A stretch of DNA of 15,764 nt, taken from positions 1-15,764 of the forward strand of contig JAEOTZ010000011.1 in the NCBI GenBank assembly GCA_016839585.1, in the 5' to 3' direction. Position 1 is the first letter of the stretch. The number at the start of each line of letters is the position of its first letter. The stretch comes from Promethearchaeota archaeon. Its GTDB lineage: Archaea > Asgardarchaeota > Lokiarchaeia > Sigyniarchaeales > SOKP01. A program made the position numbers and the translations under genes. Under the pieces are notes generated by a model. The model saw only the letters and a list, made by a program, of their open reading frames with translations, was not told the origin of the DNA and ran no database searches. Below, piece after piece: positions 3,005 through 15,764 of this stretch.

Positions 3005-4402
3005 TTAGTTCTTTTGATTTTTTATAAATTTAAATATTTTCTCCCTCTTTTTTAACGCTTCTAATGCTGACTTTCCTACTCTATTTTCCATACCTTTTAT
3101 TGTTGATGGTGTTTCTTCACCAATTTCCTGTTTTATTTTAGTATACGCAGATTCTCGAAATCTAGGTAGTAAATCTTTCTCCTCCTTATCTTTGTATATC
3201 ATTGAAACTTGTTTCGAATCGTCAACAAATCCAATTTCTGCACATTTAATATTATGTTTAGCAAGGTCTGAAATTATTCTTCCTGATATCCTTTCTGAGC
3301 AATAAATAAGAAGCGCATCTAATGAAACTCCAAGATAATCAACATCAGTCTTTTTTAATAATTCAAAAACATTTAAGTTAACTAATTTTTGAACTTTATC
3401 TTCAAATATAGTTACTCCACATTTTGCTTCATAATTTATTTCATATAGATCTCCTCTAAGACCACCATTAGTAACATCACACATTGCTCGAATATCCTCT
3501 ATATAATCTGAATTTAGGATTATCTCGCATGCTTCAAGAAATTTTAAGTTCATAGTCTCTAATACTACATCGTGATTTCCTGAATAAATTGCCGTGGTTG
3601 TAATTGTTCCTCCCCCAGATCCTTCAGTCATTAATATTTTATCACCAATTTTAATATTTCTTCTTGCTAATAACTTTCTCTTAGCAAGACCAACAGCTGC
3701 AACTCCCCCAACTAATCGATCCCCAATGACCATATCTCCTCCAATTCTTAACGTTGATCCAGCTGTTATCGGGACTTTTGTTAGTTCTGAAACTACAGAA
3801 ATACCTGCCATAAAATCAAATAATTTTCCAACATCAGCATCATCACCTAGATGAACATCAATCATTATTGAAATAGGCTTTGCTCCTTTAACATACAAAT
3901 CTCTTAAAGCTGCCCTTGTTACATGAAAGCCACATATGAATGGGTAATCACTGAGGCGAGAATGAATTCCTTCCATTTTAGAGACAATAATTAAATCTTT
4001 TGTACTAAATAATTCTCTTTTAAATCCCTTTATATCTTGTAATCGAACAGCTCCCGCATCATCGAGAGAAGTTGGAGATAAAAATGCTTTATGTTCTGTT
4101 TCTGAAAAATTAGCCACAAGTTTATGAACAAAAAAATCCCCAGCACCTCTACATCCTACTCCTTGCTTTCCTACAGAGACATTTGACTTATTAACTTCTA
4201 ATAATTCTTTTATAAAAGGATCTGAGATACAATCAATATTGCTGTTTCTACATTCTTCCAAAATAGCATTTGCAAGTTTAAAAGCTAAATTCTCATCAAT
4301 ATCTTTAAAATCCAAATATTCCTGAACTAATCTTTCAAGGATTTGACTGTCAGAATATCTTTTTTTTATTAATCTCCTTGTTAGACTTTCTAAATCACTC
4401 AA
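3005..4402 (-). CDS. Archaeal AIR-synthase/PurM-superfamily ATPase (HypE/SelD/ThiL-like; MJ0640-like family), function unknown
   Basis: GVGCRGAGDFFVH, DDAG, EGIHSRLS..P...GFHVTRAALRD..VKGA.P, GD.ILMTEGSGGG and DVTNGGLRGD..E motifs. TTG start with a GAGAGGT RBS 7 nt upstream. Confidence 0.85.
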   Translation of the reverse strand: MSDLESLTRRLIKKRYSDSQILERLVQEYLDFKDIDENLAFKLANAILEECRNSNIDCISDPFIKELLEVNKSNVSVGKQGVGCRGAGDFFVHKLVANFSETEHKAFLSPTSLDDAGAVRLQDIKGFKRELFSTKDLIIVSKMEGIHSRLSDYPFICGFHVTRAALRDLYVKGAKPISIMIDVHLGDDADVGKLFDFMAGISVVSELTKVPITAGSTLRIGGDMVIGDRLVGGVAAVGLAKRKLLARRNIKIGDKILMTEGSGGGTITTTAIYSGNHDVVLETMNLKFLEACEIILNSDYIEDIRAMCDVTNGGLRGDLYEINYEAKCGVTIFEDKVQKLVNLNVFELLKKTDVDYLGVSLDALLIYCSERISGRIISDLAKHNIKCAEIGFVDDSKQVSMIYKDKEEKDLLPRFRESAYTKIKQEIGEETPSTIKGMENRVGKSALEALKKREKIFKFIKNQKN

Positions 4403-4652
4403 ATATAAAACCTCTCATAAAATAATTGATTTAATCCAAAAAATAATGATACATCTATCAAAATATAAAGAATTAGTTTATAGAAAAATTCTTTGGAATT
4501 TTATGAAAAGATAATAATAATTTATCAAGCATACTAAAAGAATAATTTTTAAGAATACTCTAAATCCTCTCGTTCTCCCATTATAGTATATAACACATTT
4601 ATATTGTTTTAAGAATTCATAATCATAGTTCATCATTCCTAAAAAAAAAATT

Positions 4653-5660
4653 ATGACTTCTATAAGAATCACGACTCCTTGTCGTATCCACCTTTCTTTA
4701 ATTGATGAGAATGGATATACTGGTAGGGTGGATGGAGGGATCGGACTTATGCTTGACCGTCCTAATGTAGTTCTTGAAGTATCTAATAGTGCTGATGAAT
4801 TCAAAATTGAATGTCATAAGTATTATAGAGAATCTGTTCATGTTATTAATGAGAAAGCCTCTCGAATTTTCAAGGAATTTAATATTAGTAATAAAAATTA
4901 TCATTTCAAACTTAAAAGATATTATCCTAGTCATGTAGGTTTAGGTTCAAAAACTCAATTAAGCCTTGCTATTGCCTTTGCAATAACAAGATTAAAGGAT
5001 ATAAATGTATCATTACAAAAATTAACAAAATTAGTAGAGAGAGGGGGTACTTCTGGGATTGGGTGGAGTGGTTTCGAAACAGGTGGTTTCATTCTTGATG
5101 GAGGTCATGATTTTGGCAAAGGAAAAGAAAAGGAAACATTTTTACCTTCTTCAGCATCAACATCAGCAAATCCAGCCTTAACAATCTCAAGATACGAAAT
5201 TCCTGAGAATTGGAGATTTGTTCTTGTAATTCCAAACGTAAAAAAGGGAGCATACGGAGATGAGGAAGTTTCAATTTTTCAAAATCATGCCCCAGTCCCG
5301 AGAATTGAGGTAAATGAAGTATCTCATCATATAATTATGAAAATAATTCCTGGAATTCTCAAAAATGATTTAAAATGTTTTGGTGAAGGATTAAAAAGAA
5401 TTCAGTCTATTGGCTTTAAAAAAATTGAAATTAGTTTACAACATGATATAGTAAAAGATCTACTAAAATTTTTTGATGAATATGGGTTAAAAGCTTATGG
5501 AATGTCATCATTTGGACCTAGTGTAATGGGCATTGTAGAAACAGATAACGAAGCAGAAGAATTATTGAAAGTGATTCAAAAAACTCAAAGATATAGGGGA
5601 GGCCATATCTACATATGTAAACCCAATAACTATGGAGCTAAATTTGAATATATAGAATGA
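4653..5660 (+). CDS. mptG: Beta-ribofuranosylaminobenzene 5'-phosphate (RFAP) synthase, GHMP family
   Basis: TPCRIHLSLID.NG..GRVDGGIG, HVGLGSKTQ, RGGTSGIG..GFETGGFILDGGH, FLPSSAS, GFKKIE and GMSSFGP motifs. Confidence 0.93.
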   Translation: MTSIRITTPCRIHLSLIDENGYTGRVDGGIGLMLDRPNVVLEVSNSADEFKIECHKYYRESVHVINEKASRIFKEFNISNKNYHFKLKRYYPSHVGLGSKTQLSLAIAFAITRLKDINVSLQKLTKLVERGGTSGIGWSGFETGGFILDGGHDFGKGKEKETFLPSSASTSANPALTISRYEIPENWRFVLVIPNVKKGAYGDEEVSIFQNHAPVPRIEVNEVSHHIIMKIIPGILKNDLKCFGEGLKRIQSIGFKKIEISLQHDIVKDLLKFFDEYGLKAYGMSSFGPSVMGIVETDNEAEELLKVIQKTQRYRGGHIYICKPNNYGAKFEYIE

Positions 5661-5666
5661 TTAAAA

Positions 5667-6062
5667 ATGACAAAAAATAATGAAAAAATCTACTTTTCAC
5701 CAGATCTCAGTATTAGAGAAAGAGCGTGTTTTGAATCTGGTATAAAGCTGGGTGCTCTTTATCATATTCTTTGTGGAATTCCTATTCATTCTGATGAAAA
5801 TATTATTCAATCTATTGAGAAAGGAATAGAAGCGGCTATTTCATGCCAACCATTTGTAAAATCAGTAAAAATAAATTTAGATCGAGGAAAAATTATTGGA
5901 GAAAAATCTACAGAATTCGATTATGACGAGATTTCAGGTAAAATTATCAGAGCAGAATTAATTATTCAATTTGAGTCAATAGAAATAGTTGCTAAGATTG
6001 ATTGGGTTGAAAATATGCAATATCCACTCATGTTTATAGAAAAAATCTATAAAGTAGATTAA
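5667..6062 (+). CDS. mptD: Archaeal dihydroneopterin aldolase (MptD, COG2098 family)
   Basis: RERACFESGIKLGALYH...G.P, IE.AI..QPFV and C-terminal YPLM motifs. Lies 6 nt downstream of RFAP synthase. Confidence 0.9.
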   Translation: MTKNNEKIYFSPDLSIRERACFESGIKLGALYHILCGIPIHSDENIIQSIEKGIEAAISCQPFVKSVKINLDRGKIIGEKSTEFDYDEISGKIIRAELIIQFESIEIVAKIDWVENMQYPLMFIEKIYKVD

Positions 6063-6790
6063 TCCATTAAAATATTGATAAAATTACTAGCAACTTTTAT
6101 TGCTTTAATAGCTCTTTCATTTTTTCCAAATCTTTCCACATTTTCCATATGATTGACAATTGTCTCATGAATTTTATAAAATAACGGTTTATCATTTTTT
6201 TCTTTGGCAACTTTCAATCGTGTAGCAAGTAAGATAATTTCTAAAGCTAAATTTTCTGCTCTATTAAACACTTTAAAAGATTCTTTATATTTATTTATAG
6301 ACATTATATCTAATATAAATTCAGAGAGTTTGACTTCTCCTAAACTATTTTTTTTAATTATTTGTTGTTCCTCTATTGCTTTACAAAAGATAACCGCCCA
6401 AGCTTTATTTATAAAAGGCATTGAAATATTTTTTAAATTTAAATCATCAATTTGATTTAATTCTTCAGTAATTTCATAATAACTATAATATTTAGAGGGA
6501 AATTCTATAAAGAATAAATTAGGTTTCAACTTTTTTAAAGCGGCTAGTGCATATAAATAAATGTCATCTATAAAATTAATCGAAATATATCCATTTGCTT
6601 TTAAATTTTTACTTGTTGTAGTATCTGGATAAGGAGTGATTTTAATTGTTGTGTCATTAATTAATCTAATACCCATACAAGCAGTATTAGGAATAATTTT
6701 ATTTTTTGATTTGCCAATAGAAAAAGTAGTAGCTAATATTTCATATAAATAATTTAAGTTTAACCCCAATTCTCTATAATTTAGACTCAT
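6059..6790 (-). CDS. DUF447-family protein (FMN-binding split-barrel plus helical C-terminal domain)
   Basis: YEILATT, PNTACMG, YPDTTT.KNL and FNRA...LE..L.ATR motifs. ATG 6790 is preferred over TTG 6799, because that TTG lies inside the RBS-like CGGTTG. The stop overlaps the mptD stop (shared TTAA 6059-6062). Confidence 0.8.
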   Translation of the reverse strand: MSLNYRELGLNLNYLYEILATTFSIGKSKNKIIPNTACMGIRLINDTTIKITPYPDTTTSKNLKANGYISINFIDDIYLYALAALKKLKPNLFFIEFPSKYYSYYEITEELNQIDDLNLKNISMPFINKAWAVIFCKAIEEQQIIKKNSLGEVKLSEFILDIMSINKYKESFKVFNRAENLALEIILLATRLKVAKEKNDKPLFYKIHETIVNHMENVERFGKNERAIKAIKVASNFINILMD

Positions 6791-6838
6791 TAATAACAAC
6801 CGTTTCTAGCTTATCAACTTACAATATAAAAATTGTTC

Positions 6839-6939: not shown

Positions 6940-8367
6940 ATGGTCAGCAGAGTATTCAATAATAATATGCTTTTTGTAATTCCTAGTTGGGGGGATCTAT
7001 TAGGTTATCCTACTCTTGGTAAGTACGTAAATCACTATGTTTCAAAAATTGATTCAGACTTAGTTATATTCTTTGCAGGAATTGAATGTTCAATTCCAAT
7101 TAAAATTAAATTAGGAGATGTATCTGAGAAAAGATGGCTACATTATCTTTTTGGCTTAGGATATTACTATTCTAAATTTGAACTCAAATCTGGAAGATAT
7201 ATTACGGATGGTAGACAATTAACAGGATTAATTTTATCAGATTTTGTTTATGATCACTTGGCTTCACTAACAAATATTACGTTGGAAAATGACAGAGATG
7301 TTATTATCGGTGATAGATTAATCAAAGTTCCAATTGATTTATCATACAAATCGAATACTGAAAAATCTTTCATTCAAGGAGCGTTGATGAGGAATATTTT
7401 CATTCCATATAAAGATATTTTTTTAGAAGTGATGGAAACAATCCAAAATAAGGAATCTTATCAATTGGAAAACGGTCATATGATTTTAAGTACCCATTGG
7501 GATTTTTATAATACTATCTTAATTTCTTCTAAAATGAATGAAAATTTAAAGAGCAATTATTTATATCCAACAGCAGGTTTAAATAACATATCTCTTGGGG
7601 TTGATCAACATTTAAATGATATATTTTCAGCCTCAGAACTTAAGAAGATTGAAAAAAAAATATCCTCTTTACGAGATAATTTCTCAACTTTAGCCTATGA
7701 CCCTATGTATCTCTTTTCAATATTAGATAATGCATCAAGAGTCCTTATTTCCGAGCCATCCTTCGCTTTTAAAGAAAGAATTATTAAAACGACAAAAACA
7801 ATGTCAAAAGAATCAATTTTCTTTTCAGCTGAAAACCGTATGAATTCATATTTTTACTGGCCACCACAATTTAAAAGAAATACAAGAGAAGAACTGGAAA
7901 TGTCAGCTATTTTTAAAGAGTTAGAAACTCATCCTCCTGTAACACCAGCTATTAAACCTTCTGAAAGAAGTGCATCCGATATTAGCCAACTTGATACACA
8001 GAAAGGGCCTCTAGGAAAAAGATTTGAAATTAGGACTATGAAACATGAACCAGTTGAAGAGAAACTACTTCCGTATCCTCCTGAAGGTAATATTGAACAA
8101 ATACTACTTTATTTAAAAGATATTGTTAAAGGAAATTATGAAATGCGTTTAATTGGAAAAGCATTTGAACTTGCCAGAAATAATCTCCAGAGAATTATTC
8201 TTCAATCTAAATTTATGTGGGAAATGGGTAAATATGCTAATTTATACCAACGTAAAGACCCTCATCTTGGATTAAGCAAAAGAGAAATAGAAGAATTATT
8301 AGAGAAGATTGATAACTGGATTGATGATACAAGAAAAAATAGAGAGAAGTATATCCAGAAAAAATAA
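6940..8367 (+). CDS. Hypothetical soluble protein (475 aa): globular N-domain, Pro-rich linker, helical C-domain
   Basis: Long intact ORF with ATG start and upstream AAGAGA. No catalytic motif that I recognise. Confidence 0.8.
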   Translation: MVSRVFNNNMLFVIPSWGDLLGYPTLGKYVNHYVSKIDSDLVIFFAGIECSIPIKIKLGDVSEKRWLHYLFGLGYYYSKFELKSGRYITDGRQLTGLILSDFVYDHLASLTNITLENDRDVIIGDRLIKVPIDLSYKSNTEKSFIQGALMRNIFIPYKDIFLEVMETIQNKESYQLENGHMILSTHWDFYNTILISSKMNENLKSNYLYPTAGLNNISLGVDQHLNDIFSASELKKIEKKISSLRDNFSTLAYDPMYLFSILDNASRVLISEPSFAFKERIIKTTKTMSKESIFFSAENRMNSYFYWPPQFKRNTREELEMSAIFKELETHPPVTPAIKPSERSASDISQLDTQKGPLGKRFEIRTMKHEPVEEKLLPYPPEGNIEQILLYLKDIVKGNYEMRLIGKAFELARNNLQRIILQSKFMWEMGKYANLYQRKDPHLGLSKREIEELLEKIDNWIDDTRKNREKYIQKK

Positions 8368-8405: not shown

Positions 8406-9290
8406 TTATAAATGAAAATCAGTTACTTTTGGAAGAGTTTTAATCTCAGGATAAATCTTTCCTACAACAACAGGGGAACTATTGTAAATTTCTTCAATTT
8501 CTATTACTCCAAATTTGATTCCTCTGAATCTTTTGAAACCAGTAAATGTACCCTTTACTACTTGATTTGCAAAATCAAAATTCATACCAAAAACAGCAAC
8601 TTTAGAATTGACGGGAATCTGATATAAATCTTCCTTTAAAATTGAAGGAGGAAACACTAATCTATTATGATCAGTTGCTTGAAGCTGAATACATGGAATA
8701 ATTATGGGGTACCCATCTGAAGGATCAATATAAACTATTGCCCTAACTGCAATAGCAGCTGTAAATAACTTATAACCTATTACATTTAAACGTTTTTCCT
8801 TCAGTTTTGTTTTTGCTCCTCCTTTACCAATTATATTCTTTAGAATCCCTTTTATAATACCAAATAATGGTAAATTTCTTACAGTAGTAGAAGCAATAAT
8901 GTTATTATAATAAGCTGTATGCACCCTATAATAGGTTAAATATCGGAATAGTTTTGTGTTATTAAAATACTCTAAATCTTCTCCTTCTTTTGATATATTA
9001 ATAAAATCTACCTTTAATTGCAGAAATTTAAATGGCATTTCTGCTGTCATATACAAAATCCCTTGTTTTGGATTTTTTAACACATTTTTTTTACTCGTAC
9101 CCTCTGTAAACGCCGCCCAGACCAATTGTGTCTTATTAATTACTCGATTACTTGCAATAAATGTTACATGTGGCCATCCCCTTTCATCTATCGTTCCTAC
9201 TAATTTTAGCATCATTTCAGGTTGAGTAAATTCAATAGCATCTTTCGAAGCTTCAGGAGACCATTCTGGTATTTTGTTTTTCTTACTCAT
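8406..9290 (-). CDS. Tandem pyridoxamine-5'-phosphate-oxidase-like (split-barrel, putative flavin-binding) protein
   Basis: Two repeats of the PNPOx-like signature: LKLVGTIDERGWPHVTFI...SKKNVLKNPK and RAIVYIDPSDGYPIIIP...NSKVAVF. Each half ends in an 'Y/I...Y.S/N'-type strand. Confidence 0.75.
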   Translation of the reverse strand: MSKKNKIPEWSPEASKDAIEFTQPEMMLKLVGTIDERGWPHVTFIASNRVINKTQLVWAAFTEGTSKKNVLKNPKQGILYMTAEMPFKFLQLKVDFINISKEGEDLEYFNNTKLFRYLTYYRVHTAYYNNIIASTTVRNLPLFGIIKGILKNIIGKGGAKTKLKEKRLNVIGYKLFTAAIAVRAIVYIDPSDGYPIIIPCIQLQATDHNRLVFPPSILKEDLYQIPVNSKVAVFGMNFDFANQVVKGTFTGFKRFRGIKFGVIEIEEIYNSSPVVVGKIYPEIKTLPKVTDFHL

Positions 9291-9349
9291 AGCTATTCAA
9301 CTCTATAATTATAATAATTCTTTAATTTTGTATTAATTTTTTTATTTTT

Positions 9350-10348
9350 TCAGCAAGTTAATGATTTAAATGTATTTTCTTTACATGTATTTTTATTACT
9401 ATCTTTTTTCGTTAAGCCAGACCAATGAGCATTTTTTACACCAGTAGATTTAGCAATTTCAAAAAAATGTTCCATTTCTTCCTTAGTCATAAGAGGTTCA
9501 TCTTTCAAAATCCAATCAAGATCTAAACGTTCATATTTGGCTGTGCATAAATTATTGAATGCAAGTAAATCCCATCTTGAAGGGAAGTTGTTTAATTCAT
9601 TTACAATAAATTCACCAATACCTCGTATATTTTCATCTGTAGCAGTATACTGAGGAATTAGAGGTGTACGTATCCACATTTCTTTTCCATCTTTTTTAAG
9701 AAGGCTCGCAAGCCATCTAGCATTTTCAAAGATTTTCTCGTTTGATACTCCTGTCCATCTCTCATGTTTTTCCGAATTAAATTCCTTAATATCTAAAAGC
9801 ACTAAATCAACATATGGTATTATTTTTTCATATGTCTTTTTAGAAGTATATCCGCAAGTATCTAAAGCTGTTAAGATGTCATTTTCCTTACATTTTTTTA
9901 AAAAATTTGTAACAAAATCAGATTGCACCGTAGGCTCACCACCTGAGGCAGTGACTCCTCCATTTGATTTAAGATAATACACTTTATCTTTATTAATCTC
10001 ATGGAATAACTCCTCTAAATCCCACCATTTACCAAACATATTTAATGCTGTACTTGGACATTCCTCAACACATCTTCCGCAACTATTACACTTTTCTCTA
10101 TCTATATGCATACCATCTTCATCAAGCATTAAAGCTTTTAGCTCACAAGTCTCTATACATGTCTTACATCCAATACATTTATGTTTAAACCATTGTAGCT
10201 GTTTTTTTATCAAGATTGATTCGGGATTATGACACCATATACATCTTAAAGGACATTGCTTAAAAAAAACGGTTGTCCTAATACCTGGTCCATCTTCAGT
10301 TGACATCTTTTGTATTTCAAAGATTAATCCCTTGTCTGCATCAATCAT
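9350..10348 (-). CDS. Glycyl-radical enzyme activase (radical SAM with ferredoxin insert)
   Basis: DGPGIRTTVFFKQCPLRCIWCHNPE (CxxxCxxC), two extra cluster motifs CIGCKTCIETC and CNSCGRCVEECP, GGVTASGGEP and DTCG. AGGTG RBS upstream. Confidence 0.96.
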   Translation of the reverse strand: MIDADKGLIFEIQKMSTEDGPGIRTTVFFKQCPLRCIWCHNPESILIKKQLQWFKHKCIGCKTCIETCELKALMLDEDGMHIDREKCNSCGRCVEECPSTALNMFGKWWDLEELFHEINKDKVYYLKSNGGVTASGGEPTVQSDFVTNFLKKCKENDILTALDTCGYTSKKTYEKIIPYVDLVLLDIKEFNSEKHERWTGVSNEKIFENARWLASLLKKDGKEMWIRTPLIPQYTATDENIRGIGEFIVNELNNFPSRWDLLAFNNLCTAKYERLDLDWILKDEPLMTKEEMEHFFEIAKSTGVKNAHWSGLTKKDSNKNTCKENTFKSLTC

Positions 10349-10380
10349 AAAAATTTTACACCTAATAAGATAAATTCAGG

Positions 10381-10393
10381 AAAAAAAATAAAA
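10381..10393 (-). terminator. Oligo-T tract between GRE and activase (possible leaky internal terminator)
   Basis: Minus strand reads TAA-A-TTTT-A-TTTTTTTT directly after the GRE stop. Confidence 0.35.
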
Positions 10394-10394
10394 T

Positions 10395-12893
10395 TTACAT
10401 TCTATGAGATTCTCGAGCAATTATTTCATCTTGAAGCTCTTTCCCAATTGCAGTAAAATAAGCATTATATCCTGTTACTCTGACTAAAAGGTTTTGATAA
10501 TTTTCTGGATGCTTTTGTGCGTCCTTTAACAACTCCGCATCTAACATGTTAACTTGTAAAGAAGTCCCACCATTCTCAATATATCCTTTTAAATAAGATT
10601 TAAATTTTTCTCGATGCTCAGGATCTCTAAGAATACTAGGATTAAACGTAATGGTGTGACTTGCTCCATTAGGTAGAAAATTCATATATTCTCCATCTTC
10701 AGTTTTTCCACCCAAAGCAATCCCTACTGAATTAGTAACTGCTGTAGGTCCTTTTTGATCCACACCATTAGTTGGACATATCGCATTAGAAAGAAAAATA
10801 CCTGTTTTTCTCCCATCTGGAGTTGCTACGGTAAATCTTGCATCAGCACCTGCCCAATAATTCCATGATAACATTCCTGGTCGATATTGAAAGTTAGTAG
10901 GTGTTTTATAGTTCCATGTTTCATCCGCCCATAGTTTCATTACTTTTCTTGCTAATTCATCAGCTTCATCATTATCATTTCCGTATTTTGGAGCTTTATT
11001 CTTTAATACTTTTTGTATAACTTCATATCCCTCGAAATCATTCATCAACGCCTCTTTAACTTCAGTAACTGTATATTTCTTATCTTCATATACTAGTTTT
11101 TTAATTGCTAATAAAGAATCAACAGTAGTAGCGAACCCAACACCTTCAATTGTAATGTATCGTAATTCAGGACCCCCATTTCTCACATCTAAACCCTTCT
11201 CAATGCAACCACGAACAAGAGTTGATACATATGGAGTTGGAATATATTCCCCTCGAAGTGTTTCACTCATATTGTATACATCAACAGTATATTTTATGAT
11301 AAACTTGATTTGTTCCTTCCAAGCAGCCCAGAATTCTTCCCATGTCTCAAAATTTTCAGGATTTCCAGTTTTTGGCCCGATTTGCTCTCCATCCTTCGTC
11401 CAAGGTTTTTTAAAGTTCCCTGGCATATTTTTACCGTTCCATAATGTTAGTTCAATGCTTTTAGCTAAATTAGGATTACAATTTACTGTGCCTGATCGAT
11501 CATTTCCTTGCATGGTGTTTTCTAAGCAACCAACACAAGCATAATTCCAAGCCTCTTCTTTTTGAATACCCTCTATAAGTAATCCAGCAATGGCTCTTTC
11601 ATCAAAATTTAGTAAAAATGGAGCACCTTGGGACCTTGAAATCATATCAATTATCTTATTTAAAAGTTTATCAGGAGAATTTCGATGTAAACGAATATTT
11701 GGTTTAGGTTCTAATATAGGAGACCATTCATCAATGACTTCTAAAATTGTATAAGTAAGTTCATTTGTTAAATCTTCACTATTAGGACCACAACCAGATA
11801 ATGTCATTAATTGACCCCAGCCACTGTTGATCCCTTGTTTTCCAACCATTATTTGGCCATCATATACAGTATTACAATGAAACCAAAAACTTCCCAAAAT
11901 ATCTTTTGCAAATTCTTTTGTAATATTTTTCTCATCAATAACATCCTTTTCATATAATGGCCATAAATATTGATCTGTTCTACCAAAAGATGCTCCTGCA
12001 CCAGGATATGATTCTTCTGACATAACTAACATATGGGTAAGCCAGAGTGCTTGAACTCCTTGCCAGAAAGTTTTAGCTGGCTCCCAGGGAACAAGTTCAA
12101 GATTTTTTGCCATTTGTTCGAGTTCTTCAACTCTTTCTGGTGTGGACTCTTCTGCTTTTAGGCGTCTACATTCTTCAGCATATTTATTTGCTAATTTTTT
12201 AGGTATTTTCGTGGCTCTTATCATTGCTTTAAGTTCTTGACCTTTTACACCTTGTTTTTCTTTTCTACTAAGTTTATCATATCTAGTTCTTGCTTTTTCA
12301 TAGATAAATTTAAAACCTTTCTTTATTATAGTTTCATAATCAGATATGATATGACCACCAGTAGCACCTAAATTACCAAAACCAGAATTGTGGAATTCAA
12401 AGACAGCTTTTCGTGTTTTTAAATTTTTTTTCCAAAATTTCTTAGCTTCCTTTTTTGTAAAACATTTACTTAATTGTGTTTGAAATCTTCCACCAGCTAT
12501 TAAATCATTCTCAGAAATTATTTCATGTGGAATATAGTTTAACATAGCTTCTTCAAAGAAGATTATCCTACGTTCTGGCAATGATAATTTCCAAAAATTC
12601 TCAATTAATTTGATTGGTATGGCCATTGATCGAAAACAACTTTCGAATACTCCTTTACCTTTATTTCCTAAATACAAGTGAGCTTCTGGAACAATATACA
12701 TATTACCTTCTTCATAAATTAGATCCCAATCAGTTGCAGTCGTAAATGGCATAAATTGATTATACCATTCTCTTTCATTTCCCTTAAAATAATAGTCTCT
12801 TAACCATTTTGATCGTTGAGAAAGATCATGAGGTTCTGCTATTCGATATCGTTGTTCCTTTATATCATCTGGACTTCCATTAATTTTACTCAT
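10395..12893 (-). CDS. Glycyl radical enzyme (PFL2/eliminase-like superfamily), substrate unknown
   Basis: Gly loop LLVRVTGYNAYF (Gly808) and Cys loop YACVGCLE (Cys456, Glu458). Also P.TFWQGVQ..W..H, SFGRTDQYL, APKYGND, ATPDGRK.G..LS and LQVN. Activase is adjacent. Confidence 0.96.
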   Translation of the reverse strand: MSKINGSPDDIKEQRYRIAEPHDLSQRSKWLRDYYFKGNEREWYNQFMPFTTATDWDLIYEEGNMYIVPEAHLYLGNKGKGVFESCFRSMAIPIKLIENFWKLSLPERRIIFFEEAMLNYIPHEIISENDLIAGGRFQTQLSKCFTKKEAKKFWKKNLKTRKAVFEFHNSGFGNLGATGGHIISDYETIIKKGFKFIYEKARTRYDKLSRKEKQGVKGQELKAMIRATKIPKKLANKYAEECRRLKAEESTPERVEELEQMAKNLELVPWEPAKTFWQGVQALWLTHMLVMSEESYPGAGASFGRTDQYLWPLYEKDVIDEKNITKEFAKDILGSFWFHCNTVYDGQIMVGKQGINSGWGQLMTLSGCGPNSEDLTNELTYTILEVIDEWSPILEPKPNIRLHRNSPDKLLNKIIDMISRSQGAPFLLNFDERAIAGLLIEGIQKEEAWNYACVGCLENTMQGNDRSGTVNCNPNLAKSIELTLWNGKNMPGNFKKPWTKDGEQIGPKTGNPENFETWEEFWAAWKEQIKFIIKYTVDVYNMSETLRGEYIPTPYVSTLVRGCIEKGLDVRNGGPELRYITIEGVGFATTVDSLLAIKKLVYEDKKYTVTEVKEALMNDFEGYEVIQKVLKNKAPKYGNDNDEADELARKVMKLWADETWNYKTPTNFQYRPGMLSWNYWAGADARFTVATPDGRKTGIFLSNAICPTNGVDQKGPTAVTNSVGIALGGKTEDGEYMNFLPNGASHTITFNPSILRDPEHREKFKSYLKGYIENGGTSLQVNMLDAELLKDAQKHPENYQNLLVRVTGYNAYFTAIGKELQDEIIARESHRM

Positions 12894-12952
12894 TCTATTT
12901 ATAACCTGGTCTTACTATTAAATAATAGTGTGAAATTAAATGTTAATTATTG

Positions 12953-12977
12953 TTAAAAATATTTATAGCTTATTTTT
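12953..12977 (-). promoter_or_regulatory. Putative BRE/TATA promoter of the GRE operon
   Basis: Minus strand AAAAATAAGC-TATAAATA-TTTTTAA, about 67 nt upstream of the GRE ATG. CAGGT RBS near the start. Confidence 0.45.
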
Positions 12978-13043
12978 ACATTTTATAACAAATTAATACT
13001 ATAAAAGAAAAGGATTAAAAAAATAATAATTTTAACTTTTATT

Positions 13044-13586
13044 TTATTTAAGTCTTTCTTCAGAAAGATGTAAGTGGTCTGTTTCAACTTCCACTAAAGC
13101 TTGGAAAATTTCTTTAACACGAGGATTTTTCGCTTCTTTTGCTGCTTGCCCATAGAATTTGATTGCTCTCTCTTCTCTTTGATGAGATTCTTCTAAATTT
13201 GGTGTATATTCTGATGCACATTTATCATATTCAGGAAAGTCAACTTTATCTAATTTAAGGATCTTTTTCCAGACTGATGCGTGTTCATTTTCTACTTTTG
13301 CCAAAATCTTAAATATTTTCTGACCTTCCAGTTCTGGTGTTTTCTTACTAGAACATTTATAAAAGATTGTATTTGAGACTTCCACTTCTAAAGCTTTCTC
13401 TGCATTTGCTTTGTCTTTTTCATTTAATTCGACATCCCATGCTCCAGTATCATCATAATCTTTTGTTTTAACGAAAAATTTCTTGAAAGCTCCACAAAAT
13501 GGGCAACGACTAGGAGCTTCTTCTCCAATATAAGCTTCTCCACAAATTTTACATACAAACACGTTTACTTTTGTAATTTTTTTCAC
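13044..13586 (-). CDS. Reverse-rubrerythrin-like protein (N-terminal rubredoxin-like site plus ferritin-like di-iron domain)
   Basis: CKICG...CPFCG followed by E..., ENEH, E..., ETDH di-iron ligand pattern. The start is uncertain because GTG 13586 lies inside the AGGTGA RBS. Confidence 0.88.
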   Translation of the reverse strand: MKKITKVNVFVCKICGEAYIGEEAPSRCPFCGAFKKFFVKTKDYDDTGAWDVELNEKDKANAEKALEVEVSNTIFYKCSSKKTPELEGQKIFKILAKVENEHASVWKKILKLDKVDFPEYDKCASEYTPNLEESHQREERAIKFYGQAAKEAKNPRVKEIFQALVEVETDHLHLSEERLK

Positions 13587-13854: not shown

Positions 13855-14949
13855 ATGAAGCCACGTGTCTTAGGTGTGGATCCCGGATCTTTAAGTTGGG
13901 ACTTCTTTGCATTGGATGATGACACCATAATATTAGACACTTCAATACCAACAAAAGAGTTAATACAAGATCCCCAAAAAGCGATTAATATCATTAGATC
14001 AGTTGAAAACATTGATTTAATGGTTTCTCCTAGTGGATTTGGCCTTCCATTAAAAAATGTAAGAGATTTAACTGAAAAAGATATTTTCTTTACTCTTTTA
14101 AAATTTAATCAGAAAGATAAGGATAAATTAATTGGTCTTGGAGAAGTGCTAAGATTAATTAAAGCACAAAATATTCCAGGGATAATCGTCCCAGGAGTGA
14201 AACATTTACCGACCATTCCAAGATATAGAAAGATTAATAAGATTGATATGGGTACAGCAGATAAATTATGTACAGCTTTAACAGGAATAAGAGATCAAAT
14301 GGAGAGATTTAATGTCGCACCTAAAGGAACAAATTTTATTATGGTTGAAATTGGGTATGGATTTACTGCTGTTTTAGCAATCGAAAATGGTCAAATAATT
14401 GATGGTATTGGTGGTTCTAATATCATGGGATTTAGAGCTTGTGGTTCCCTTGATGGAGAATTAGCATATCTAATTAAAAATATCAGAAAGAAAAATATAT
14501 ATAAAGGTGGAGTAGCTTATATCTCTGGATATTCTGATTTAAGTTTAAGAGAAATAACTCTTTTAGCTGAAAGGGATGAACAAACCAAAACTGCCCTTAA
14601 AGCGTATATTTCAAGTGTTAAAAAAGCAGTGTTTGGAATTGCATCATCATTTTCACAAAAAGAAAAAATAGTGGAAGTTTTATTAGCTGGAAGGGGTGCT
14701 GAATTGAATTATTTAAGAGAACGGATGATTCGTGGTTTAAAAGATGTTGCTCCTGTTAAAATTATGAAATCTTATAGTCAAATAGCTAAACGTGCTGCTC
14801 AAGGTGCTGCTTTCATTGCCAATGGAATATTAGGAGGTAGATTCGAGCCAATTATAAATAACTTAAAAATTAAAGAAGCATCGGGTTCAATTCTTGACGA
14901 TATTTTTATTCCATTTGAAAAAGATAAACTAATACGTGATCTAGATTAA
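13855..14949 (+). CDS. DUF1464-family ASKHA-fold protein (predicted butyrate-kinase-like, COG2441)
   Basis: N-terminal LGVDPGS, PSGFGLP, PGVKHLPTIP.YRKINKIDMGTADK, EIGYGFTA...G.IIDGIGG, G.LDGELAY and KRAAQGAAFIANG. Confidence 0.88.
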   Translation: MKPRVLGVDPGSLSWDFFALDDDTIILDTSIPTKELIQDPQKAINIIRSVENIDLMVSPSGFGLPLKNVRDLTEKDIFFTLLKFNQKDKDKLIGLGEVLRLIKAQNIPGIIVPGVKHLPTIPRYRKINKIDMGTADKLCTALTGIRDQMERFNVAPKGTNFIMVEIGYGFTAVLAIENGQIIDGIGGSNIMGFRACGSLDGELAYLIKNIRKKNIYKGGVAYISGYSDLSLREITLLAERDEQTKTALKAYISSVKKAVFGIASSFSQKEKIVEVLLAGRGAELNYLRERMIRGLKDVAPVKIMKSYSQIAKRAAQGAAFIANGILGGRFEPIINNLKIKEASGSILDDIFIPFEKDKLIRDLD

Positions 14950-15764
14950 AATTCTTATAATTACAGGTCAAAATAGTTATCCAACTATTAAAAAGATTGT
15001 ACAACCCATTGAAGAACATTTTATTTCCGTATTTAAAGCTCCAATTTCAGTATCTGCATTTTTAACAGAAAAAATGACTGATAATATTCTGAAAAATCAA
15101 GATCTTTCTCAATTTAATTTAATTTTACTTCCTGGGTTCGTTCAATGGAATACAAGTAGTTTAGAAAAAAAATTCTATACTAAGATTAAAAAAGGACCAG
15201 AATTCGCTTCTGACTTACCTTCAATATTAAAAAATCTTGAAAATATTGATTTATCAAATACAATTCCAGCAAACAAATTAATAGAAATTTCTGGTGAAAA
15301 GTTGTACAATCAAATCCTAGAAGAGCGATTAGATATTGCAAAGAAGAATTTAGGATTTCACACATTTTATCTTAATGAAAAAAGTTCAAATATAATAATA
15401 GGGCGAAATTTGCCTCCCCCTATAATAGCTGAGATTGTAAATTGTACTGAAAAGTCTAAGAAAAGTATAATTAAGAAAGTGAAGCATTATATTAACTCAG
15501 GAGCAGATATAATCGATATTGGATGTGTTGCAAATAAACCCCACCCCCAGAGAGTTAAAGAAATTATTGATCTCATTAGAGACAATTTTAATATACTAAT
15601 AAGTATTGATTCAATGGATACTAACGAGATATTAGCCGCTGTAGAGAGTAAAATCGATTTAATCCTTAGCCTAGATTTAGGAAATTATATGGAATTTTCA
15701 GATATTCCAAGAAATATCCCTATTGTTATATTACCAACTAAAATTAATGAGGGATACTTTCCAA
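14945..15764 (+). CDS. Dihydropteroate-synthase-like protein (archaeal MJ0107/Orf20-type), 3'-truncated; absent from the ORF track
   Basis: Manual translation is open to the window end: IKILIITG...PISVSAFL...LILLPG...KGPEFASDLP...LS.TIPA...PIIAEI...SGADIIDIG...ISIDS...DLILSLD...IVILP. It overlaps the DUF1464 stop. There is no ATG/GTG/TTG until ATG 15074. Confidence 0.88.
   Translation, partial: MKILIITGQNSYPTIKKIVQPIEEHFISVFKAPISVSAFLTEKMTDNILKNQDLSQFNLILLPGFVQWNTSSLEKKFYTKIKKGPEFASDLPSILKNLENIDLSNTIPANKLIEISGEKLYNQILEERLDIAKKNLGFHTFYLNEKSSNIIIGRNLPPPIIAEIVNCTEKSKKSIIKKVKHYINSGADIIDIGCVANKPHPQRVKEIIDLIRDNFNILISIDSMDTNEILAAVESKIDLILSLDLGNYMEFSDIPRNIPIVILPTKINEGYFP

Follow-up and report, generated by a model that had tools for sequence, protein, structure and literature searches.

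A three-gene glycyl radical locus in an Asgard archaeon

The subject of this work is a stretch of 15,764 nt from a Promethearchaeota archaeon (contig JAEOTZ010000011.1 of assembly GCA_016839585.1), hereafter the window, and within it three genes at 8406–12893 that we call the trio. They encode a glycyl radical enzyme (GRE), its activase of the radical S-adenosylmethionine (SAM) type, and a third protein, termed here the partner, modeled as two tandem split β-barrels of the PNPOx type (Table 1). The evidence set out below supports the view that the trio represents a real, widespread and unstudied class of GRE, defined by its dedicated tandem split-barrel partner. Labels beginning with G, C, L, f and g denote the genomes, contigs, loci, families and genera that we compared; the genome of the window itself is G000.

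All three genes lie on the minus strand, with gaps of 46 nt between GRE and activase (10349–10394) and 59 nt between activase and partner (9291–9349). Open reading frame (ORF) coordinates thus bear out the compact, co-oriented arrangement described in an earlier, sequence-only reading of this DNA. The same reading placed the genes behind one TATA-like promoter, and this claim fared less well: several TATA-like strings occur in the spacer upstream of the GRE, no more than background for DNA with a G+C content of about 29%. Because the genome is so low in G+C, these strings are not evidence of a promoter. Domain scans agree with the reading in one further respect, as neither small GRE subunits (of the fumarate-adding or decarboxylase kinds) nor microcompartment shell genes were found among the window proteins; the two gaps are so short that there is no space for small-subunit genes inside the trio. 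The closest relatives of the proteins all come from Asgard archaea, namely metagenome-assembled genomes (MAGs) of Promethearchaeota/Lokiarchaeota and MAGs labeled Hod-, Hermod-, Heimdall-, Thor- and Odinarchaeota.

Table 1. Features of the trio, and the other GRE genes of the same genome
Feature	Position	Strand	Description
GRE, 832 aa (P0001)	10395..12893	-	Uncharacterized clade of PFL2/eliminase-like group; Pfam PFL-like and Gly_radical
GRE activase, radical SAM, 332 aa (P0002)	9350..10348	-	TIGR02494; two-[4Fe-4S] ferredoxin-like insert
Partner protein, 294 aa (P0003)	8406..9290	-	Two tandem split β-barrels, PNPOx/FMN-binding-protein type (AF2 model)
AT-rich spacer 5' of GRE, putative promoter region	12894..13043	-	150 nt; oligo-T run just past upstream gene
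Thiyl (Cys) loop V454-G455-C456-L457-E458-N459 of GRE	11517..11534	-	Translation; single Cys, Glu two residues on
Glycyl radical loop R805-V-T-G808-Y809 of GRE	10467..10481	-	Translation; Gly_radical Pfam match
Radical-SAM cluster motif C32-x3-C36-x2-C39 of activase	10232..10255	-	Translation ...KQCPLRCIWCHNPE...
Further GREs of G000	C90:111402-113747, C63:27909-30248, C31:7748-10114		Genome scan

The GRE falls outside the characterized families

P0001 has the hallmarks of the GRE superfamily: a glycyl radical loop, a thiyl cysteine that aligns to C433 of the B12-independent glycerol dehydratase (GDH), and a radical-SAM activase encoded next door. Pfam recognizes a PFL-like domain at residues 177–678 and a Gly_radical domain at residues 703–814 (E 8e-23). 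All six residues of the thiyl loop, which aligns to C433/E435 of GDH, are invariant in 27 archaeal and bacterial orthologs, as are R805, T807, G808 and Y809 of the glycyl loop. The Cys-x-Glu dyad C456-L-E458 is thus present and invariant; this motif also occurs in some decarboxylase GREs and hence is not exclusive to eliminases.

The AlphaFold 2 (AF2) model of the GRE (pLDDT 85.7) was compared with solved structures using VIA-align 2. A group of tied best matches (Z 34.6–36.0) comprises GDH, 1,2-propanediol dehydratase, CutC, HypD, PflD, YbiW and HplG, together with Archaeoglobus PFL2 and N-methyl-hydroxyproline dehydratases. IseG, IslA and HpsG score slightly lower (Z 32.4–32.9), as do decarboxylase GREs (Z 32–33), followed by fumarate-adding enzymes (Z 29–31.6), true pyruvate formate-lyase (PFL; Z 26.8) and NrdD (Z 18).

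Curated NCBIfam cut-offs and these structure Z-scores form the basis of our comparison with the characterized GREs; the tree described below does not include CutC, GDH, IslA and others. No NCBIfam GRE family cut-off is reached by P0001. Its scores against the respective cut-offs are 395/1000 for HpsG, 389/1100 for HypD, 376/1000 for HpfG, 363/1050 for CutC, 279/1100 for indoleacetate decarboxylase, 209/1150 for 4-hydroxyphenylacetate (4-HPA) decarboxylase and 92.9/994 for PFL (TIGR01255). Even the broad PFL2/glycerol-dehydratase subfamily model TIGR01774 gives 434 bits versus a cut-off of 678 and matches only from profile position 154, compared to 711 bits for one of the paralogs in the same genome and 637–654 for two. 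By sequence, the best solved relative is GDH (phmmer E 3e-100, residues 173–832), to which the GRE is 28% identical in the fold alignment. A quick maximum-likelihood tree (IQ-TREE) recovers the GRE clade as monophyletic (support 100), on a long stem and apart from the genome's other GREs. Within this tree, the bacterial orthologs form one clade, sister to Loki-type Asgard sequences, and the pair is nested in a grade of other Asgard families. Leaving aside the root and the direction, the nesting of bacterial sequences among Asgard GREs hints at a transfer between the domains.

The sequence-only reading had called this GRE atypical, which holds for its N-terminal sequence only. Its first ~175 residues escape both Pfam profile and PDB sequence searches. 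The predicted fold, however, superposes on other GREs from residue ~20 onward, which argues for a sequence-divergent N terminus rather than a new domain. The substrate pocket also appears distinct. Of the GDH residues that we take to bind glycerol (H164, H281, S282, Y339, D447 and Y640), only H164 has its counterpart, as invariant H181, retained along with C456 and E458; the other five align to A299, G300, L362, V470 and L675. Judged from the alignment, the pocket is unlike that of any known eliminase and more hydrophobic than that of GDH. R671, considered from the alignment as a sulfonate- or anion-binding residue, proved uninformative, since HypD has it too.

Hundreds of Asgard homologs of the GRE share 73–94% identity with it, and members of the clade carry the source names ‘pyruvate formate lyase family protein’ or ‘formate C-acetyltransferase’. 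A literature search returned no paper on this trio or on a GRE with a PNPOx/split-barrel partner.

The partner is a tandem split-barrel protein, probably with a cofactor site

P0003 itself matches Pfam PNPOx_N weakly (E 6e-4; 20.5 bits versus a gathering cut-off of 28.1). Among its relatives, 12 of 13 bacterial-type and 13 of 22 Asgard-type partners match this domain at E ≤ 0.01, the best at E 4e-11. The AF2 model (pLDDT 84.5, pTM 0.83) contains two consecutive split β-barrels, and the N-terminal barrel (residues 13–141) matches structures of FMN-binding protein, HupZ and FDORs with Z 12–14.3 and a Foldseek probability of 1.0. The model and these matches confirm the tandem PNPOx-like identity proposed from the sequence alone.

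Residues conserved in both the archaeal and bacterial branches cluster in the N-terminal barrel: K29, P40, the helix S66-K-K-N69...N73-P74, and F115-R116-Y117. In proteins of the PNPOx fold, a pattern of this kind fits a site for a phosphate-bearing cofactor. The N-terminal barrel therefore probably binds such a cofactor, with flavin mononucleotide (FMN) or flavin adenine dinucleotide (FAD) more likely than F420; heme, or no cofactor at all, would be conceivable alternatives. F420 is available in G000, which encodes CofD and CofE. However, CofE was not found in four of five trio-bearing bacterial genomes, among them the isolate Desulfatibacillum alkenivorans DSM 16219 and one with a closed chromosome of 4.97 Mb, and for this reason F420, which the sequence-only reading had listed among the candidate ligands, is unlikely as the general cofactor of the family.

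When 1.84 billion representative proteins were searched by profile, 708 clusters of the partner family were recovered. A separate search for longer, fused partners gave none, which is weak evidence, and the ESM Atlas contained only the partner's own family. A shorter version occurs in family f21, whose partner consists of just one split barrel (about 140–160 aa) that matches residues 27–123 of P0003. At the sole f21 locus fetched (L004:7424-7909, G038), a 161-aa single-barrel partner follows the activase; in four other sampled f21 genomes (G028, G047, G070 and G088), matches of 137–145 aa lie ~1.1 kb from the GRE. Two f15 genomes (G023 and G034) contain only weak partner matches of 136–140 aa, in one case at a distance of 20 kb from the GRE. 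The single-barrel version is consistent with descent of the tandem protein from a homodimer.

GRE and partner are co-inherited in archaea and bacteria

We surveyed 301 Asgard genomes, taking as GRE orthologs full-length matches at E ≤ 1e-150, which were 45–84% identical to P0001. Such orthologs are present in 118 genomes and partner relatives in 120; both occur in 108, the GRE only in 10, the partner only in 12, and neither in 171. Several of the discordant cases are contig ends (that of G040 comes 154 nt past the GRE), and others are weak matches to unrelated small proteins. As read from the coordinate tables, in roughly four-fifths of the 108 genomes GRE and partner share a contig and are separated by ~1–2 kb, with the activase in the interval.

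A comparison of 21 loci, representing 11 Asgard families, shows no conserved gene set apart from the trio. The layout varies somewhat. The order is GRE-partner-activase in L011 and L014, while L007 (G237) has a GRE-partner pair and no activase within the 16 kb fetched. Split clusters are seen in the window's own family, with an activase-partner pair lying 10–13 kb (L012, L018 and L019) or 51 kb (G109) from the GRE. In other loci, start/stop overlaps of the trio genes indicate tight coupling.

For bacteria, we scanned GTDB species genomes with the partner alignment, which gave 544 bacterial places, and kept 80 loci, picked by the partner alone. A full-length ortholog of the trio GRE (50–56% identity, N terminus included) is present in 69 of these 80 loci and the activase in 71, with GRE and activase directly upstream of the partner in the order GRE-activase-partner; several of the others run into the end of their contig. 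Hosts among the 544 places include D. alkenivorans DSM 16219, Syntrophales/Smithellaceae, Desulfomonilia, Myxococcota, Spirochaetota, Binatota and Gemmatimonadota. In bacteria, the clade is widespread in Thermodesulfobacteriota, Myxococcota, Spirochaetota, Binatota and others. For the converse, 80 metagenome loci were picked by the bacterial GRE alignment alone. Sixty have at least 2 kb of downstream sequence, and all 60 carry both activase and partner, the partner starting 975–1890 nt past the GRE end. Hence, whether the search starts from the GRE or from the partner, the partner gene is conserved beside GRE orthologs in Asgard archaea and bacteria.

Collectively, these data support the proposal, made originally from the sequence alone, of a new GRE class with a dedicated split-barrel partner. 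The GRE lies outside the characterized clades, reaching no family cut-off, with pocket positions replaced and a long-stem clade of its own, and the PNPOx-like gene stays next to its orthologs.

The partner tracks the GRE rather than the activase

Contig C144 of a genome from the same genus (G243) is colinear with the window. ORF 2116 and the genes for the AIR-synthase-like protein, β-RFAP synthase, dihydroneopterin aldolase, DUF447, DUF1464 and DHPS-like protein are common to both, at 49–84% identity. C144 retains an intact activase gene (71% identical) and the reverse-rubrerythrin gene upstream (84% identical), with no GRE between these two and no partner between activase and DUF447. Neither a trio-type GRE nor a partner was found anywhere in the G243 assembly, which is 95% complete. 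Similarly, in G204 (100% complete), an intact orthologous activase stands beside four other GREs, with no partner. These comparisons indicate that GRE and partner are present or absent as a pair, while a generalist activase stays in place. In other words, the partner tracks the GRE, not the activase.

The activase itself scores 324 bits for TIGR02494 versus a cut-off of 174 and contains Radical_SAM and Fer4 domains. Its own genome encodes four GREs in all (Table 1), one of which is a trans-4-hydroxy-L-proline dehydratase (HypD) equivalog (1295 bits, cut-off 1100) with only 32% identity to the trio GRE. As a tblastn search across the whole of G000 found no second GRE activase, a single activase apparently serves all four. 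The four GREs beside the orthologous activase of G204 stand in tandem (L189, G204:C26:199500-214500), are 813–821 aa long and share 31–33% identity with the trio GRE.

Neighboring genes

No transporter, pathway gene or other gene beyond the trio is conserved among the loci compared; genes that recur nearby do so within particular lineages. In bacteria, 22 loci have a gene for a GntR/FCD regulator, with a weaker FadR_C match, immediately upstream. Eight Myxococcota-type loci (L037:6860-9566, L047 and relatives) have genes for an FAD amine-oxidoreductase-like protein and an FNR-like 2Fe-2S reductase, co-oriented and directly after the partner, and this pair could supply the partner with electrons in that lineage. 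Within the window's own family (genera g3, g4 and g8), an MFS_2 glycoside-type transporter gene appears in three loci, and sulfatase, NMO-like, molybdopterin-oxidoreductase and GH2 genes in single loci each. A galactokinase-like gene is near the trio in one family, a GNAT gene in another, and genes for a PlsC-type acyltransferase and an acyl-CoA ligase in 5–6 loci.

In the window, the trio is embedded in a neighborhood of methanopterin-type pterin biosynthesis (3005–6799 and 13855–15764), with genes for AIR-synthase-like, β-RFAP synthase (NF040726, 343 bits versus a cut-off of 328), archaeal dihydroneopterin aldolase, DUF447, DUF1464 and pterin-binding DHPS-like proteins. Since this neighborhood is colinear in G243, where GRE and partner are missing, we consider it unrelated to the trio.

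A co-oriented reverse rubrerythrin-like gene (13044–13586, minus strand) lies 150 nt upstream of the GRE; its product has an N-terminal rubredoxin-like domain and a ferritin-like domain. The gene is also found upstream of the activase in G243, with no GRE intervening, and is a local neighbor, perhaps with a part in oxygen or peroxide defense.

Convergent on the partner gene is a 475-aa ORF (6940–8367, plus strand) with no match in Pfam, NCBIfam, PDB or the ESM Atlas. Its closest orthologs (57–94% identity) adjoin the partner in two genera (G168, G213, G207 and G279), and more distant paralogs occur in 52 of 71 family genomes, some of them trio-less. We considered and rejected this protein as a fourth component, as its family is also found in genomes without the trio and just one subclade, in two genera, adjoins the partner.

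A proposed mechanism and its alternatives

We infer a type of chemistry, a cofactor and a role for the partner from the genes, motifs, folds, clade position and co-inheritance observed. In the scheme that we favor, the trio is a self-contained module of an unstudied GRE class whose split-barrel partner processes the product of the GRE; we assign it a probability of roughly 0.6. The activase, a radical-SAM protein with two extra ferredoxin-type clusters, would use SAM to generate a radical on Gly808 of the GRE. Judging from homology and the motifs, this radical would in turn form a thiyl radical at Cys456, which would take a hydrogen atom from the substrate. Glu458 may act as general base, as in the GRE 1,2-eliminases, given the C-x-E dyad and the eliminase-like fold. 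The reaction would likely be a radical elimination of a C–O, C–N or C–S leaving group, yielding a carbonyl or enol product. The partner, as a tightly associated redox partner or subunit, would then reduce or otherwise process this reactive product. Its co-inheritance and coupling with the GRE, together with the retained cofactor-site pattern, argue for such a dedicated, probably flavin-binding product processor.

Several observations weigh against this scheme. The C-x-E dyad does not prove elimination, because decarboxylase-type GREs carry it as well. No substrate can be argued, as neither a transporter nor a gene for a downstream pathway is conserved. P0003 falls short of the PNPOx_N cut-off in Pfam, its C-terminal barrel lacks the phosphate-helix motif (structural matches to this barrel were barely sampled), and F420 is a conceivable cofactor in G000, which makes it. 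The position of the partner beside the activase, away from the GRE, in L012, L018 and L019 would also fit a role in activation. Finally, in a few genomes, among them G077 (100% complete) and G012 (closed), a GRE is present but no partner was detected.

The partner might also be a subunit without any cofactor, having a structural, regulatory or protective role like the one that small subunits play in benzylsuccinate synthase and 4-HPA decarboxylase, or it might bind a hydrophobic ligand or heme in the manner of HupZ. Its coupling to the GRE and their strict co-inheritance would fit such a role. The divergent, clade-specific N-terminal 175 residues of the GRE could then be a docking surface. The weak PNPOx_N score of P0003, its degenerate second barrel and the presence of HupZ-type heme binders among the best fold matches point the same way. 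On the other hand, the K/R and S-K-K-N...N-P positions of the N-terminal barrel are kept across archaea and bacteria, and PNPOx_N matches as strong as E 4e-11 within the family fit a retained cofactor site. Moreover, the known small subunits of GREs are unrelated Fe-S or HiPIP-like proteins. We regard this explanation as unlikely, though a serious competitor.

A bolder possibility is that the partner is an obligate, flavin-carrying subunit of the GRE whose flavin joins catalysis, which would make the enzyme the first GRE to couple a glycyl/thiyl radical to a flavin. The outcome would be a net reductive or oxidative radical reaction, such as the reductive cleavage of an inert ether, C–C or C–S bond, in contrast to the redox-neutral eliminations known so far, and would amount to an unrecognized reaction common in Asgard archaea and sediment anaerobes. 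We hold this to be more doubtful than a cofactor-less subunit.

Small split-barrel FMN proteins are known as electron carriers, and the partner could instead be a dedicated flavin electron donor, a substitute for flavodoxin that reduces the [4Fe-4S] clusters of the activase for installation of the glycyl radical. Activase and partner genes often overlap by a few bases, and G000 has one activase for four GREs. In the split clusters L012, L018 and L019, the partner sits directly beside the activase, apart from the GRE, an arrangement that keeps this idea alive at low probability. But the comparisons within the genus disfavor it: GRE and partner are both gone from the colinear locus of G243, where the activase is retained, and an intact orthologous activase is kept alongside other GREs in the absence of a partner. 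In G237, it is the GRE that the partner adjoins, with no activase in the 16 kb fetched, and the activase has its own two ferredoxin-type clusters through which electrons could enter. A role as electron donor is therefore improbable, and slightly more so than participation of a flavin in catalysis.

The identity of the substrate is the subject of a further alternative, in which the GRE cleaves a C–O bond in the glycerol part of lipids (e.g. alkylglycerol ethers) and the partner acts on that lipid or on what is formed from it. Ether lipids are known to be made by Desulfatibacillum and Myxococcota. A hydrophobic pocket that keeps the GDH-like His, Cys and Glu would suit such a substrate, as would the FadR_C match, albeit weaker, of the GntR/FCD regulator in 22 bacterial loci and the acyltransferase and ligase genes in 5–6. 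However, FCD regulators are not acyl-CoA-specific, and the acyltransferase/ligase loci that were checked come from Smithellaceae or unclassified delta-proteobacterial MAGs and may not be independent. No lipase or lipid-transport genes are conserved, and the Asgard neighborhoods, if they suggest anything, suggest something other than lipids (genes for an MFS_2 glycoside transporter, sulfatase, GH2, NMO and a galactokinase-like protein). We think this a long shot.

Two annotations already attached to Asgard GREs are least credible of all. A pyruvate or 2-oxoacid formate-lyase is what the NCBI names of clade members in MAGs imply, what Imachi et al. 2020 (PMC7015854) assumed for the GREs of MK-D1, a cultured Asgard archaeon, where ‘2-oxoacid-formate lyases’ are the basis of formate hand-off in their syntrophy model, and what the GntR/FCD regulators, often carboxylate sensors, might suggest; yet the adjacent Cys-Cys pair of PFL is G455-C456 here, invariant across the clade, the TIGR01255 score is about a tenth of its cut-off, PFL is the most distant fold match of the PFL family (Z 26.8 versus 35–36), and in a closed genome of 4.36 Mb from the same order, the PFL-like GREs number just two, the trio GRE and a HypD equivalog, both scoring far from the PFL model. 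A fumarate-adding alkyl- or benzylsuccinate synthase is equally improbable: Zhang et al. 2021 (PMC8163825) called single-Cys GREs of Hermodarchaeota Ass/Bss, Hermodarchaeota proteins fall within our clade at 75–76% identity, the pocket is hydrophobic and the trio is present in Desulfatibacillum and Smithellaceae, but the locus has no β or γ small-subunit genes and its neighbors are unrelated, the Glu after the Cys is conserved, the activase scores 187 against a cut-off of 496 for the BssD model, TutD (E 1.5e-51) and MasD (E 2e-64) are far weaker matches than GDH (E 3e-100), the fold comparison agrees (Z 29–31.6 versus 35–36), and no genes for β-oxidation of succinate derivatives lie nearby.

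Relation to known systems

The closest known systems are the B12-independent glycerol dehydratase DhaB1/DhaB2 of Clostridium butyricum (1r8w) and GRE 1,2-propanediol dehydratase (5i2g, 9rco). GDH is both the best sequence match and a tied-best fold match of the trio GRE (Z 36.0, root-mean-square deviation 2.9 Å over 719 residues), and the two share the Gly loop, the G-C-x-E thiyl loop, a His at the H164 position and a ferredoxin-insert activase encoded next door. They differ in that the trio GRE is only 28% identical, has five pocket positions replaced and an N-terminal 175 aa that is unrecognizable, and scores below TIGR01774. Furthermore, the glycerol and propanediol dehydratases lack a tandem split-barrel partner, whereas the trio has a dedicated one.

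Among the other eliminases and relatives compared (HypD, CutC, IslA/IseG, HpsG/HpfG, HplG, the PflD/YbiW sugar-phosphate dehydratases and N-methyl-hydroxyproline dehydratases), the fold (Z 32–36), the C-x-E loop and a two-gene core of GRE and activase are shared features. Against this, the trio GRE reaches 35–40% of the equivalog cut-offs, and a split-barrel partner is a defining feature of none of them. The multi-subunit GREs, namely benzylsuccinate synthase (αβγ), (1-methylalkyl)succinate synthase and 4-HPA decarboxylase (βγ), offer a precedent for a small, co-encoded and co-inherited accessory protein that a GRE can require. Their small subunits, however, are Fe-S proteins unrelated to split barrels and are not encoded at the trio locus, and their catalytic subunits are more distant from the trio GRE (Z 29–32.5). 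As for PflB/PflA of E. coli, the enzyme belongs to the same superfamily and its name is the usual one in MAG annotation, but the trio GRE has no Cys-Cys pair and is remote by profile and fold (TIGR01255 93 versus 994; Z 26.8).

The partner in turn resembles small split-barrel proteins that bind flavin, deazaflavin or heme, such as the D. vulgaris FMN-binding protein (1axj), Swol_0183 (3in6), HupZ (5esc) and the mycobacterial FDORs (3f7e, 4zky). Besides the Z-scores of its N-terminal barrel (12–14.3) and the PNPOx_N signature of its family, its tandem barrels mimic the homodimer of these proteins. It differs from them in having two fused barrels, the second without the phosphate-helix, in its low identity (8–16%), and in its obligate linkage to a GRE. 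The only parallel that we found is LssP, an expressed PNPOx-like protein with no assigned role in the operon of limonenylsuccinate synthase, a GRE, from a Syntrophobacteraceae MAG (PMC12583861). Judged by its description, LssP would be a second PNPOx-fold protein in a GRE operon.

Implications

Neither the formate-lyase label nor the Ass/Bss label holds for the trio GRE clade. As a consequence, metabolic models of Asgard archaea should be revisited in any part that depends on members of the clade. For Imachi et al. 2020 and Zhang et al. 2021, the point is conditional on the genes that they discuss being members.

GREs, which are sensitive to oxygen, perform difficult anaerobic reactions of gut and sediment microbes. 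To our knowledge, each new GRE class so far has revealed a new reaction, and we know of no precedent for a GRE with an obligate flavin-type partner. A GRE with such a partner may thus point to new radical chemistry. The question raised by the trio is directly testable, since D. alkenivorans DSM 16219, which carries the genes, is an isolate in culture. With orthologs in 118 of 301 genomes, the clade is one of the most frequent GREs of Asgard archaea, the archaea most closely related to eukaryotes.

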